Assembly (NCBI RefSeq): GCF_044324785.1
Contig: NZ_CP172127.1
DNA: 64,000 nucleotides
From: Escherichia coli
GTDB lineage: Bacteria; Pseudomonadota; Gammaproteobacteria; Enterobacterales; Enterobacteriaceae
Strand: one strand, 5' to 3'
The position numbers were made by a program. Shown one piece after another: positions 9,001 through 15,000 of this stretch (position 1 is the first letter of the stretch; every line of letters starts with the position of its first letter).

Positions 9001-12000
9001 TTCAACGCGCCTGATTCAAGCCCCACATAACCGCCTCGAATCTGACCATTGCTGTTGTTGAGCGTCCCGGTTTTCAGCGCCACGATACCCGCTTCAATCC
9101 CGACAGAACTCCCTTTACCAGAGTTAATCAGCGTGGCGTTATTGGTATCGACCGCCAGCATACCTGCTGCCGCAAGCTTGCCGTTGGTATTGTCAATCGT
9201 ACCGCTGTTAACGTAGATATCGCCCATCGTAGAGATGTTACCCGCACGGGTATTCACGATAGTATTCTTGTTGGTATTGAGCGAGATAGTGCCTACAGAT
9301 GTCACCGTACCGGTGGTGTTATCCAGAGTACCATTTGTCGTCAGGTTGATCGTGCTTGCAGACTGAATCTGGGCATTGCTATTTAACAGGTTACCTTTGG
9401 AATCGATGCTGACACCATTAACACCCCCAGCAATAACGCCGAGGTTGCGAACCCCTACACCTTTCTCGGTGCTAACCAGACTGATTTTGTTCGCATACAT
9501 TCCGCCCAGTTTGGCAACATCTACGCTGTAACCGTTACGGGAACCCGTGGCGGATACGCTACCGGTCACCTGGCCTGCGGCGTTAACATAGTTATTGCCA
9601 GCAACAACGTTCAGCTCATCGGCAGACACTTTGCCGTTAACCACCACGTTACGGGAAAGAATTTCTGTCGGGCTGGCGTTATCCAGTTTACCGAGCGTAA
9701 TGGTACCGCCGTTCACGGAATAACCGGCCAGCTTGTCATCCTGGATATCCGGCGTCCCGGTGGTTAAGGTCAGTTTACCTGTATTGATTGAACCACCACC
9801 GTTTACAGTAATACCATTCGGGTTGGCAATAATCAGATCCGCTTTATCCCCTGCAACTTCCATCATCCCATTAATGGTTGAAGGATTTTTGGAAGTAACC
9901 TCATTCAGGATCACCTTCGCCGACCCGGAGGTCAGATTACTGTTTCCCTGAATATTTCCGGCAAGTGAAGTACTGGATTCATTAGCGCTGTTATTGAAAA
10001 CGACACCATTTTTATCAACGTTTAGGTTATCCCAGATATTATGAGATAAACCGCTACCGTTAGGTTTGTTGATGTCAACGACTGGCACACCATTGGCGTT
10101 ATATACCGTTCCATTTTTTATGACTAATCCCGCCGCTTGAGAAGCTACAGGAAAAGACAACATCATAAGTATAGCAATAGGGGTTAATGCTTTACCCACC
10201 GTTGCTTCCTTACTTAAATTTATCATCGCCACTAACGTTTTCCTTATTGATGCTATTCATTTTGGACATGCAGATCACTTTTGATGACTCACGGAATATC
10301 AGCAAAAATGATTGCGGCAAATCCTATCACCTGGCGCAATAAAAAATCACGAAAAATAAGCTGAAATAAGGACTCAAAAAAACAACTAAGAGTTATTGTT
10401 TTTTCAACGAACGGCGAAGTACCTAACTTACTAAAACACAATAATTTAAAAGTCCCCCATCCTTCCTCCTTGGGTGAAAAAAATCCATTTTAGAGGATGT
10501 CTGAAATGATATGTAGTTTTCTGTACGACATCATTTCAGACATCCGAATAAAACAACAAAGTTGATGAGTTACAATTAATTTAAATCTTGTTATTTGATT
10601 AACAAAGCATCATCATTACTGCATCTTATTCTCTATATCTTTTACGTCGGGGTAGATTCTTTATGGTCATTACGGGCAGGCGACATTTCATTATATTACC
10701 ACTTGCATTCACGCTTGTAACCCTTAAGAGTTATATAAAAAGGAAATAGTTCTTGCTCATGGTATTACTGAGATCGGATTAACCATGAGGTTAGCTATAT
10801 AGAGAACTTTGGCTTTGCGACAATTGGCTTAAGCAGCCACATTATGCCTGGCTTATCGTTGAAAGGGAGAAAGAAGAGCAAAACAGTTTGGCAAGCTTTC
10901 ATTCCCATCTAATAGCAATCACCGCTATACATCATCCCTTAACGTACTCTGGCCTTCATAAAAATGTTATTCTAAATTAAAGATTGTAATGATTTTAATA
11001 ATATTGTTATTATTTTGCAACAAATCAATCTAAAACAATGATTAGTAGCGATTTTTTATTAGTTAAGAGAAATTGTTTTTACAGATTGCGCTATAATTCC
11101 GCTCATTATTCACCACAGGAAAAGCTGAAGTAATCTTAAATGACTGTATTAACCCTTTTCTCCGCTGCCAGCACTCTTAAATATCGTTGTTTTATTCTTA
11201 TAAAAACGGCTTTTTTGAGATAAAAAGTAATAGGTTCAGCCATTATGCAGAATTTACAACCTAAGAAAATCGCAAAAAACACTCTTATTCAGAATAAAAC
11301 TCTGTTCATCATCTTTCGGTAAGAATTAAATTACTATATTACCGTTCAACATCAGTATGAATGAAAATTCAATTGTTATACATGTGATGAATGTCATATA
11401 TTGTGCTCATCGATTGCAGGACATCGCTATTCTTTTAGAGATACAGATATCACGCTGTTACTCTCTGTATAAAGCACACGCAAAGATTAGTTGTGTTACT
11501 GCAGTTGTTATGTCGCATATGGAAAGCCCATTGTTACATCTTTAGTAATAAGTTTTATTCACTTTCAAAATTTTTACTCCATGAAGATGGGCTGTTTTGC
11601 TGCAAGCAATTGAGTTAGTGCAATGAACAAGAACTTACTAACAAGGGTAATTATCATTTCGGATGATCTATATTACCTTCAGGGATTAAGTGCAAAACTA
11701 GGTAACCATTATCGTTTTTTTATTGAGTGTTTTTTTTGTACTCAAAATGCATGTAATAATGACCTAAGTACACTTAGATTTGATAACCGCTTTACCAAAA
11801 ACGTACTTCTTGTCGCAGTGGATGACGTAAGTATACTTGCAAAACTGCCAGATTTGGCCAGGTTTTTAATGATTGTTTCACTCAGAAAGATGAAAAACAG
11901 AAATATCTTCTTTTCACTCTCAGAGCAAACATTCATTAGCCGACATATAAAATTGAATAAACTCATTACTTTGATTAAAAGTACTGATAAAGACCAGCAA

Positions 12001-15000
12001 GTCAGACAGGTGACTCTGACAAGGTATGAGTGGGATATCTATTACTTATATTTTAAGATAGATAATAAAAGAATATTGCACACCCTGCTAAAAAAGGATG
12101 TCAAGTACATTAGTCACTATAAAATATCGGTTTTCAACAAGTTTGAAATTGCTTGTGATAGTGATGGCTTTTACATTTTCAAGGCACTTATACAGTTAAG
12201 GAGATTTACCGGTTTTAAAAACGTCAGATTGTATCAATTGCATTAATTATCTCGTTCTATATTAACTCTAAATTTCAAGGATATTAATATGTTTTCTACT
12301 TTCAAAAAAGCAGCTCTGCTGGCAGCTATCGCATTACCTTTTTCTACCATGGCTGCACCGACAGTCACTTTTCAGGGTGAAGTAACCGATCAGACCTGTT
12401 CCGTAAATATCAACGGTCAAACCAATTCAGTAGTATTGCTGCCGACCGTAGCCATGGCTGACTTCGGTGCAACTTTAGCTGATGGCCAGAGCGCAGGCCA
12501 GACGCCGTTTACGGTTTCTGTGTCTAACTGCCAGGCTCCGACTGGTGCAGATCAGGCAATCAACACCACTTTCCTGGGCTACGACGTGGACGCTAGCACG
12601 GGTGTTATGGGAAACCGTGATACCAGCAGCGACGCGGCGAAAGGCTTTGGCATTCAGTTAATGGATTCCAGCACTTCTGGTAACCCAGTAACTCTGGCTG
12701 GCGCGACTAACGTACCGGGTTTGACCCTGAAAGTTGGCGATACTGAAGCCAGCTACGACTTCGGTGCGCGTTACTTCGTTATCGATAGCGCAGCTGCCAC
12801 TGCCGGTAAAATTACCGCTGTCGCAGAATACACCCTGAGCTACCTCTAATTAATCTACTGGCTGGCAGTAAATGTCAGCCAGTATTTCTTCGCACAATTA
12901 ATAGTGATTTTTCATGGACATGGAAAAGATAAGAATGAACATTTTTGCATATTTACTGGTACTTGTATTTTCCATGAGCATGAGCAGCAGCGCGTTTGCC
13001 AGCGTGGTAATGACCGGAACCCGTATTATTTTCCCTGGTGACGCAAAGGAAAAAACCATCCAGTTGCGAAATACCAGCGATCAGCCCTATATCATTAATA
13101 TCCATGTTGAGGATGAACGTGGTTCTGACAAGAATGTACCGTTTATGCCAACCCCGCAGACATTTCGCATGGAAGCTGCCGCAGGTCAGGCGTTACGCCT
13201 GCTCTACACTGGTGATAATTTACCGCAGGATCGCGAGTCTGTTTTCTGGTTTAGTTTCAGTCAACTACCTTATCTGAATAAGAACGATAAAAGTCAGAAC
13301 CAGCTCATCCTGGCCCTGACTAATCGAGTCAAAATTTTCTATCGTCCCAGCTCGATTGTCGGTAAATCCAGTGACGCGCCAAAAAACCTGACTTACCAGG
13401 TAAAACAGAACCGCATTGAAGTGACGAATCCCACGGGCTATTACGTCGTGATTCGCGTCGCTGAACTGCTTAATAACGGTAAAAAAGTCCCCCTCGCGAA
13501 TTCCGTCATGATTGCACCTCAAAGCACAACTGAATGGACACTACGCTCTGGCATCAGCGTCGCTCCCGGTGCGCAGATTCATTTAGTGACCGTCAATGAC
13601 TATGGCGTAAATGTCACGTCTGAGCATGCCTTATAACCTCTTTCCCCTTTTTTGAGCGGTATCCTTTTTCACGCACGAGTATGTCGAGATGAATAAATCC
13701 GTTGTGTCAATTTCTGCGGCAATATTGGTTTTACTCTGCCAGCCGGTTATGGGGAAAGAAATCTCACCCGCTACACCGTCAGATGAAGACAACTACACCT
13801 TTGACCCGCAACTCTTTCGCGGCAGCAGATTTAGTCAGTCGTCATTGGCAAAACTGACAACTCGTGAGTCTGTTGCACCGGGCAATTATAAAATGGATAT
13901 CTACACCAACAATAAGTTGTCAGGTAGTTGGAATGTCGCGTTTAAAGAAGCCGCTGATGGTCGCGTTCTGCCCTGCCTGACGCCTGAAGTCGCGGACGCG
14001 ATAGGCCTCAAAACAGGGGAAGATAAGGGTGAAAAAGAGCCGGTCTGTACCTTTGCTCAGGAACTCGCTCCCGGCATCACCAGCCAGACACAGTTGTCAC
14101 AACTGCGCCTTGACTTGTCGGTGCCTCAGAGTCAAATGATTAGTCGCCCTCGCGGCTATGTCCCCCCCAGCGAACTGGATACCGGAGCATCGCTGGCGTT
14201 CATGAATTATATTGCCAACTATTACAACGTTGCCTATTCAGGGCAGAATGCTCATAGCCAGCGTTCGCTATGGGCATCATTTAATGGTGGCATCAACCTT
14301 GGTGCCTGGCAATATCGTCAGTTATCCAACATGACCTGGGATAATGACAAAGGGAATCAGTGGAACAATATTCGTAGCTATTTGCAACGCCCGCTGCCCG
14401 CCATAAATAGCCAGTTAATGATGGGGCAGCTTATCACCAGCGGAAGATTTTTCTCTGGACTCAGTTATCACGGCGTTAGTCTCGCGACCGATGAACGTAT
14501 GCTGCCGGACTCCATGCGCGGCTATGCGCCGACTATTCGCGGCGTGGCCGCAACAAACGCCAGAGTCTCGGTAATGCAAAACGGTCATGAAATATATCAG
14601 ACTACCGTGGCTCCAGGCCCTTTCGAAATAAACGACCTATACCCCACCAGCTACAGCGGCGATCTGGATGTCACCGTTACGGAAGCTAATGGCGCAATCA
14701 GTCGTTTCAGTGTCCCCTTTTCAGCCGTACCAGAATCGATGCGTCCAGGAACTTCCCGTTATAACGTGGAAGTAGGTAAAACGCAGGATAGCGGTGATGA
14801 CTCGATGTTTGGTGACCTCACCTGGCAGCACGGGATGACTAATACGCTGACATTTAACAGTGGCTCGCGTATCGCTGATGGCTACCAGGCGCTTATGCTT
14901 GGCGGAGTCTATGGCAGTACGCTGGGGGCATTTGGGGCAAACCTCACTTGGTCCCATGCGCGTGTTCCTGAAAGCGAAGCGCAGAGTGGTTGGATGTCGC

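Follow-up and report, generated by a model that had tools for sequence, protein, structure and literature searches.

EcpR (MatA), FimZ and FimW are LuxR-type regulators of fimbrial operons in Escherichia coli and Salmonella, encoded at the operon that they control or as its first gene. Together with MrkI of Klebsiella, they act as local transcription factors of chaperone-usher operons, by activation or by countering silencing. The locus considered here may represent a further case of this kind. It is a 2056-bp AT-rich segment (positions 10233-12288) of a 64,000-nucleotide stretch of the E. coli contig NZ_CP172127.1, hereafter the window, and is located on O-island 47 (OI-47) of E. coli, between otpA, a two-partner secretion (TPS) gene on the minus strand, and the Loc6 fimbrial operon on the plus strand. 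A preliminary description of this DNA had seen in the segment one control region shared by two adhesin systems. On balance, we rather consider it as two independent control regions together with the gene of a regulator (207 codons, 11623-12246, plus strand), all carried on the acquired island.

Two reviews delimit OI-47 as z1528-z1556, with grvA as z1531, and a review reports the island in essentially all O157:H7 strains. In a preprint and a comparative-genomics paper, the two-partner system OtpAB corresponds to ECs1282-1283 and Loc6 to ECs1276-1280 (ECs1276-1281 in one table). In the literature, both systems are described as responding only under particular conditions, e.g. in lettuce lysate or at 14°C. 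The gene called otpA here is equated by position with ECs1282 of O157 strain Sakai. The 207-codon gene, a “hypothetical protein” in RefSeq, would by numbering be z1539 and is most simply ECs1281, since no other gene is annotated between ECs1280 and ECs1282; a literature search found the tags z1539 and ECs1281 mentioned nowhere. As to the two adhesin systems, the term is appropriate for the Loc6 fimbriae, while OtpA is a TPS exoprotein whose function is listed as unknown, with no established adhesin role.

The division of the segment emerges from comparison with a diverged version of the entire block (otpBA, regulator, Loc6, dehydrogenase and a grvA-like gene), found in gut metagenome and sequencing-run assemblies (L003-L006) and without a match among complete E. 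coli genomes. From otpBA through the regulator to Loc6, the two lineages are syntenic. Synonymous divergence (dS) of the flanking genes is 0.8-1.8, i.e. near saturation, and protein identity is 72-90%, with only 55% for the regulator. At the nucleotide level, identity between the two lineages is 77-88% at the 5′-end of otpA and 66-73% over the first 200 nt upstream of it (10233-10432), falls to 29-51% in 100-nt windows across 10633-11332, which is effectively unalignable, and rises again to 59% at 11333-11432, 51-73% in the 207-codon gene and 80-89% in the fimbrial subunit gene. Two conserved blocks separated by about 700 bp of unalignable DNA argue for two separate promoter regions, and the notion of a single shared divergent one is not borne out. 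The two blocks have no motif in common, and D1, the region's only direct repeat of 20 nt, is not kept in the diverged lineage.

The fast-evolving, AT-rich spacer between the blocks (10621-11332) is devoid of open reading frames (ORFs), Rfam matches, repeat families and pseudogene remnants. In the 1390 bp of non-coding DNA as a whole, no six-frame ORF exceeds 62 aa, and comparison of six-frame stop-to-stop segments with the diverged lineage yielded no conserved small ORF: some matches covered one and the same piece of conserved DNA in several frames and in both orientations, and others were interrupted by stop codons. The 62-aa ORF itself (11357-11545) is interrupted in L004, one of the diverged copies. 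The Rfam scan of the whole window returned nothing in this region, and a search of the region by itself gave only chance-level microRNA-type matches to hairpins (E = 0.036-0.81), far under gathering scores. A repeat or mobile element was rejected as an explanation, as the hairpin described below is single-copy and the direct and inverted repeats present are short, imperfect and unconserved. So was an invertible switch of the fimS type: the repeats are imperfect (72-80%), the locus has no recombinase gene, and the matches listed are all colinear and in one piece.

With a GC content of 0.328, the segment ranks lowest among the 2-kb stretches of the window, whose overall value is 0.489. Only 0.04% of all 2056-nt windows are equally AT-rich, every one of them an overlapping neighbour, and GC content is 0.31-0.35 in each 500-nt window from about 10000 to 12250, with otpA and the fimbrial genes on either side at about 0.50. 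The preliminary description had given about 30% against about 50%; the AT-richness and the value for the flanks stand, and the value for the segment is closer to 33%. Its boundaries proved exact: the minus-strand TPS gene starts with a GTG codon whose first base is position 10232, and the ATG of the fimbrial major subunit gene begins at position 12289. A control region of 2 kb is an overstatement, since 624 of the 2056 bp (30%) are coding (GC 0.322); the non-coding remainder consists of 10233-11622 (1390 bp, GC 0.335) and a 42-bp spacer. The divergent arrangement of the flanking systems was confirmed by Pfam matches to TPS and Fil_haemagg domains on the minus strand and to Fimbrial, PapD and Usher domains on the plus strand.

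Horizontal acquisition, also proposed earlier, agrees with the location on OI-47 and with the patchy presence of the locus: positions 10000-12400 were matched in 380 of 5426 complete E. coli genomes, with 90-99.7% identity and as a single copy in each. Among the carriers are isolates from human urine, fish, pigs, guinea fowl and a gull, and a plasmid record accounts for one match. According to a 2024 review, OI-47 is restricted to O157:H7, O55:H7 and O145:H28, and the spread of this locus looks wider than that. As to possible silencing by H-NS, a scan for its high-affinity motif TCGATAAATT with up to 2 mismatches showed no enrichment and detected no site inside 10233-12288, which would still allow binding driven by AT-richness alone; a literature search turned up no H-NS chromatin immunoprecipitation or hns-mutant data for the locus.

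Judged by its pattern of substitution, the 207-codon gene is real. Among E. coli alleles the ratio of nonsynonymous (dN) to synonymous divergence is 0.066-0.085, indicating purifying selection of a strength similar to that on neighbouring genes, and the frame is full-length and intact in all eight E. coli alleles fetched as well as in the diverged lineage, where two homologues of 54-56% identity occupy the same position. Between lineages, its protein-level change is 3-6 times that of most neighbours (dN 0.33 vs 0.05-0.10; 0.20 for the second chaperone). Relatives are few. Direct searches of 5.8 billion proteins retrieved six matches, an exhaustive profile search added eight more distant relatives of 195-223 aa, and with a further search the family grew to about 20 clusters. 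All are annotated as hypothetical, and those with a named source belong to Enterobacter, Pseudenterobacter or E. coli. A scan of species-representative genomes found one locus, so that family size is taken from the protein databases.

The protein is predicted to combine a receiver-like N-terminal domain with a LuxR-type helix-turn-helix (HTH) domain. AlphaFold2 run on an alignment of 20 sequences produced a confident model (pLDDT 84.4, pTM 0.80) with a CheY-like receiver fold at the N-terminus and an HTH of four predicted helices (134-196) at the C-terminus. In a Foldseek search of the PDB with this model, the top 34 matches were all full-length regulators of the receiver plus LuxR-HTH type, RcsB ranking first (E = 9e-5) and VpsT sixth (3kln, E = 9.4e-4), followed by ChrA, EvgA, NarL and FixJ. 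Profile comparison points in the same direction: with hhalign, residues 130-186 of the family profile matched the GerE domain of P0027 at E = 7.9e-5, P0027 being a genuine member of the LuxR family (Pfam GerE match of 2.7e-10), and weak Pfam GerE hits, the only recurrent ones, were found in 4 of 20 family members. Profile searches of the PDB gave only a marginal match, to RcsB (E = 0.43). The family is in register with the C-terminal domain of RcsB and with the HTH of NarL (sequence identical to PDB 1A04), R107 being aligned with NarL K109.

Conservation within the family fits such a fold. Nine residues are invariant (M1, D15, G21, R107, E136, K161, S164, K167 and K173), and D14, D67 and S86 are at least 90% conserved. 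In the predicted structure, and without superposition, D14/D15, D67, S86 and R107 fall at the ends of beta-1, beta-3, beta-4 and beta-5, respectively, i.e. at receiver active-site positions, with the invariant arginine at the position of the conserved receiver lysine. Less orthodox features of the model are a beta-hairpin in place of alpha-4 and extra strands at 125-131 and 200-205. The c-di-GMP (cyclic di-GMP) binding motif of VpsT is W[F/L/M][T/S]R; it is absent here, the family alignment having no conserved tryptophan. Neither the annotated genes of the island nor the loci of relatives include a kinase gene, and the 207-aa protein is thus an orphan. The earlier suggestion that this ORF is a plausible regulator therefore holds: it is a real gene, with homologues, and its product has the predicted fold of a DNA-binding regulator.

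On the otpA side, the conserved sequence upstream of the gene (10233-10620, minus strand), in which no conserved reading frame was found, is read as a promoter followed by a long 5′ leader. It features a hairpin (10495-10545, minus strand) whose perfect arms of 16 bp enclose a loop region of 19 nt. The hairpin lies 263-313 nt before the otpA start, has a fold energy of -30.1 kcal/mol (z = -6.8), is equally stable on either strand and is present once in each of the 380 locus-carrying genomes. It is not an intrinsic terminator, as no U-run follows the stem on either strand. The five distinct hairpin alleles of E. coli include two G-C to A-U double changes, i.e. compensatory pairs, and three independent one-sided stem changes, all of which leave a G.U pair on the minus strand and an A.C mismatch on the plus strand (given transitions, the chance of all three wobbling on the minus strand is 1 in 8). 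The diverged lineage shares only a 9-bp core of the arms and has its stem extended inward by new pairs. These sequence patterns favour an RNA structure in a long otpA leader transcribed from the minus strand. A pairing of one hairpin arm with the regulator ORF (I8, 12-nt complementarity to codons 10-14) was also considered and taken as chance, as the I-S-D-D codons concerned are themselves near-palindromic; it is not kept in L004.

On the Loc6 side, the conserved block 11333-11432 (plus strand) is a candidate promoter region for both the 207-codon gene and Loc6. Within it, the sigma-70-like site TTGTTA-N18-TATATT (11373-11402) retains its -10 element and spacing in the diverged lineage with one base changed in the -35 element (TTGTGA), and is likely to be the promoter of the 207-codon gene. 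The gene is followed by the 42-bp spacer (12247-12288, plus strand), in which AAGGA provides the fimbrial subunit gene with a Shine-Dalgarno sequence. This short gap, together with a terminator scan of the region that returned no terminator-like site, makes it probable that the Loc6 transcript begins with the 207-codon gene.

Taken together, these observations suggest the following mechanism. The 390 bp beside otpA would act as promoter and long 5′ leader, whose RNA would carry the hairpin 10495-10545 and probably be affected by it in stability, processing or translation. The middle 700 bp would be unconstrained AT-rich DNA and, by its composition, a natural substrate for H-NS silencing. The block at about 11333-11432 would serve as the promoter of the 207-codon gene, probably at the head of the Loc6 transcript. 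The product of this gene, an orphan protein with an atypical NarL/FixJ (LuxR-type) response-regulator architecture, would by analogy most likely be a local transcription factor of the adhesin operon that follows, by activation or by countering silencing.

The 207-codon gene is not the only candidate regulator, as had been claimed: grvA (19862-20683, plus strand), which encodes a characterised ToxR-family regulator, is located on the same island, 7.6 kb from the AT-rich region and beside an EAL-domain gene. GrvA (273 aa) is a ToxR/MarT-like winged-helix protein. The ORF after its gene encodes 163 aa, for which a membrane segment is predicted at the N-terminus, and the pair spans 19862-21179. 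The EAL-domain gene, z1528 (21281-22891, minus strand), encodes a protein with a CSS motif and an EAL domain, which we take to be the product named VmpA. These genes lie in a second AT-rich block of similar depth (about 18778-23039, GC 0.32-0.38) that holds grvA, the 163-aa ORF and the CSS-motif EAL gene. GrvA is described as a “global virulence regulator” of enterohaemorrhagic E. coli that controls the LEE (locus of enterocyte effacement) virulence island and acid resistance; according to reviews its expression depends on RcsB, and the 2024 review reports it to be 30% identical to MarT.

The neighbourhoods of relatives of the 207-aa protein were compared in seven loci outside OI-47-type islands and then in an eighth, L021. 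An EAL-only gene lies immediately upstream in five of the seven (256-268 aa where complete, two being truncated), and in three of these five it is accompanied by a divergent winged-helix gene and a small ORF of 98-162 aa (98 aa in L013). An adhesin is encoded directly downstream in four of the seven: chaperone-usher fimbriae in L014 and L019, a trimeric autotransporter in L013 and a classical autotransporter in L018. The eighth locus, from Enterobacter cloacae, repeats the L013 cassette with its trimeric autotransporter. GrvA is a full-length homologue of the relatives' winged-helix proteins (E = 2e-17 to 7e-15), the 163-aa ORF has weak C-terminal similarity to their small partner proteins, and OI-47 thus holds all four cassette parts in rearranged form. 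In Enterobacter and related bacteria, the recurring cassette (L013, L015, L019 and L021, also L014 and L017) has the small ORF and the GrvA/MarT-like gene on one strand and the EAL-only gene, the relative of the 207-aa gene and the adhesin gene on the other. By eye, the cassette EAL proteins keep their catalytic motifs (EIL..R, N, E..E, DD, K.D, EGVE, QG). PilZ domains were searched for with Pfam and found in none of the loci examined, on OI-47 or in relatives.

It is tempting to speculate that the 207-aa protein represents an unrecognised family of atypical receiver plus LuxR-HTH proteins that belongs to a four-gene adhesin-control cassette of Enterobacteriaceae, split apart on OI-47. The cassette would have a GrvA/MarT-like membrane regulator and a small membrane protein encoded on one strand, an EAL phosphodiesterase and the LuxR-like protein on the other, and could precede an adhesin of any of the three classes seen. 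We put this forward tentatively, the pattern being one of association and not of mechanism. If it were true, GrvA and ECs1281 would originally have been partners, and may still be, in the control of Loc6 (and OtpAB) in response to c-di-GMP or envelope signals.

Several observations weigh against the proposed reading of the segment. The sigma-70 scan was not above chance (11 sites vs 11.2 expected), so that promoter positions rest only on conservation in two lineages. The covariation of the hairpin involves just five distinct alleles, and 17 of 500 shuffles do as well; moreover, palindromes can gain symmetric changes by templated repair without selection (quasi-palindrome mutagenesis). For the 207-aa protein, no family of Pfam or NCBIfam gives a match, and neither GerE nor Response_reg is hit even at E = 10; an earlier model from 4 sequences was unusable (pLDDT 39.8), and the HTH assignment combines a predicted structure with transitive profile matches of modest significance. 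The lack of a canonical alpha-4 and the replacement of lysine by arginine make signalling by phosphorylation doubtful, and there is no kinase gene among the annotated island genes. Finally, the usher frameshifts and the otpB stop codon detailed below may mean that the otpAB/Loc6 system is decaying.

The alternatives differ in how much of this evidence they accommodate. Were the whole 2 kb one shared, H-NS-silenced divergent promoter region whose ORF product co-regulates otpAB and Loc6, this would suit the strong AT-richness, the island context and the preservation of both the divergent arrangement and the otpBA / regulator / Loc6 synteny at near-saturated dS. It agrees poorly with the 700 bp lacking detectable conservation between the two blocks, and with the lack of a motif common to both, of a conserved D1 and of an H-NS high-affinity motif. 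GrvA provides the island with a second regulator, and relatives of the ORF are linked to a downstream adhesin, pairing with a TPS gene being confined to this island. We therefore regard a shared region as rather improbable. Even less credible is the idea of the ORF as a passenger gene that is in decay or has no function, with the region being AT-rich junk between two acquired modules. Its lack of a database family, its very few homologues, its rapid evolution relative to its neighbours (dN 0.33 vs 0.05-0.20) and the inactivation of those neighbours in some strains could all be cited for it, and are outweighed by a dN/dS of 0.07-0.09 within E. coli, by the intact frames in both lineages and by a confident predicted fold with conserved functional positions.

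Two further alternatives would modify single elements of the picture. The hairpin might act at the DNA level, as a protein-binding palindrome or cruciform, or be a neutral quasi-palindrome maintained by template-switch repair, and not be part of an otpA leader RNA. Its equal stability on both strands, the symmetric changes that intrastrand templating could produce and the modest covariation statistics all allow this. Yet it is only on the minus strand that the three one-sided substitutions give wobble pairs, the hairpin of the diverged lineage is built from different pairs, which is unexpected for a protein operator, and arms separated by 19 nt are unusual for a dimer site, so that we see a DNA-level role as a minority possibility. 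A similarly modest chance is given to the 207-aa protein being part of a c-di-GMP-linked or otherwise partner-dependent module, with an EAL enzyme and a GrvA/MarT-like regulator, or as an RcsB auxiliary, instead of a stand-alone regulator. The gene neighbourhoods speak for such a module, with the EAL-only gene upstream in five of the seven loci and the divergent GrvA-like gene with its ORF of about 160 aa (98 aa in L013) in three of these and again in L021, as do the full-length homology of GrvA and the presence of all four parts on OI-47. RcsB and VpsT are among the best structural matches, RcsB is needed for grvA expression, and mrkHIJ of Klebsiella provides a precedent for a fimbrial operon that combines an EAL enzyme with a LuxR-type regulator. 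Against it, the VpsT c-di-GMP motif has no counterpart in the family, the OI-47 EAL gene lies 9 kb away on the opposite strand with a CSS motif plus EAL architecture, and neighbourhood is no evidence of a physical or signalling interaction. Nor did any trace of a lost EAL gene appear upstream of the ORF: such a gene was tried as the source of the 1.39-kb non-coding stretch, and a tblastn search with the EAL proteins of five relatives against the region and the diverged lineage reached a best E of 0.54.

As annotated in RefSeq, strain N3 and the O157:H7 strain TR01 share the gene order of the window: fatty-acid/polyketide-type genes; a ShlB-type transporter and a filamentous-haemagglutinin-type gene on the minus strand; the 624-bp “hypothetical protein” gene, the five-gene chaperone-usher operon on the plus strand and a short-chain dehydrogenase; the winged-helix regulator with its small ORF; the EAL-domain gene; and dgcT and pgaA. 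In the window, otpA (tpsA, 6420-10232, minus strand) encodes a protein of 1270 aa in which haemagglutinin repeats accompany a TPS secretion domain (Pfam, RefSeq). The gene of its TpsB transporter, otpB (4712-6331, minus strand), has a premature in-frame TAG at codon 140 (5912-5914), which is CAG in O157:H7 TR01; OtpA is thus probably not secreted in this strain. The Loc6 operon (12289-18247, plus strand) encodes the major subunit, a chaperone, the usher, a 444-aa fimbrial protein and a second chaperone (Pfam Fimbrial, PapD and Usher). Its usher has an intact 840-codon frame in the window (13689-16211) and is annotated as frameshifted in TR01 (L001 17690-20207) and N3 (L002 17691-20212). The inactivated part of otpAB/Loc6 thus varies with the strain.

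To the right of the EAL gene, the ORF layout at 23328-24443 and 24908-25972 matches that of strain N3, in whose annotation dgcT and pgaC are truncated and pgaA/pgaB missing; the same deletion of poly-N-acetylglucosamine (PGA) export genes is probably present in the window strain. By comparison with N3, ORF 24908-25972 is phoH, and an Rfam match above gathering score, Ysr251 (24913-25106, plus strand, 191.8 bits), is antisense to its 3′-end. The cspA thermoregulator leader (61057-61479, minus strand, 157.1 bits) also scored above the gathering threshold.

The locus is of an ordinary kind, the AT-rich regulatory region of an acquired adhesin island, and its analysis refines a known island map and changes no major concept. 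It contains a probable, divergent LuxR-type regulator that had escaped annotation, its gene being uncharacterised and listed only as a “hypothetical protein”, and a conserved hairpin in the putative otpA leader, a second small element open to testing. The predicted regulator fold, together with relatives that occur with EAL and GrvA-like genes before adhesins, provides a testable handle on the switching of Loc6 and OtpAB. The findings also bear on a possible ancestral local job of GrvA, and the cassette association is the part most worth following.

Compared with known systems, the 207-aa protein most resembles NarL/FixJ regulators such as RcsB, NarL and EvgA. According to the model, it is like them about 200 aa long and joins a receiver fold at the N-terminus to a four-helix LuxR/GerE HTH, and the acidic pair after beta-1, the aspartate after beta-3 and the serine after beta-4 are conserved in its family. 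Unlike them, it has no Response_reg or GerE match in Pfam, arginine for lysine, a beta-hairpin for alpha-4 and no nearby kinase. With VpsT and CsgD, c-di-GMP-linked receiver plus LuxR regulators of matrix and curli genes, the parallel lies in VpsT, a close structural match, being an unorthodox receiver plus LuxR regulator of surface structures, whereas the W[F/L/M][T/S]R motif sets VpsT apart. In terms of gene order, a 207-codon gene 42 bp before the major subunit gene reproduces the ecpR-ecpA arrangement, a comparison by position only; no sequence similarity to EcpR, FimZ or FimW surfaced in the searches run, which did not include a direct sequence comparison. In Klebsiella pneumoniae, MrkI (197 aa, FixJ/LuxR) and MrkJ (238 aa, EAL-only) are encoded beside the type 3 chaperone-usher operon, much as relatives of the 207-aa protein follow a 256-268-aa EAL-only gene and precede fimbrial genes, a likeness of architecture and gene order alone. 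The present loci differ from mrkHIJ in having no PilZ protein (MrkH) and, on OI-47, in the distance and different architecture of the EAL gene. The last parallel concerns the companion genes, and hence a protein family different from that of the 207-aa ORF: MarT-FidL with misL on Salmonella pathogenicity island 3 (SPI-3), like GrvA and its partner, associates a ToxR-like membrane regulator and a small membrane protein with an adjacent adhesin gene.

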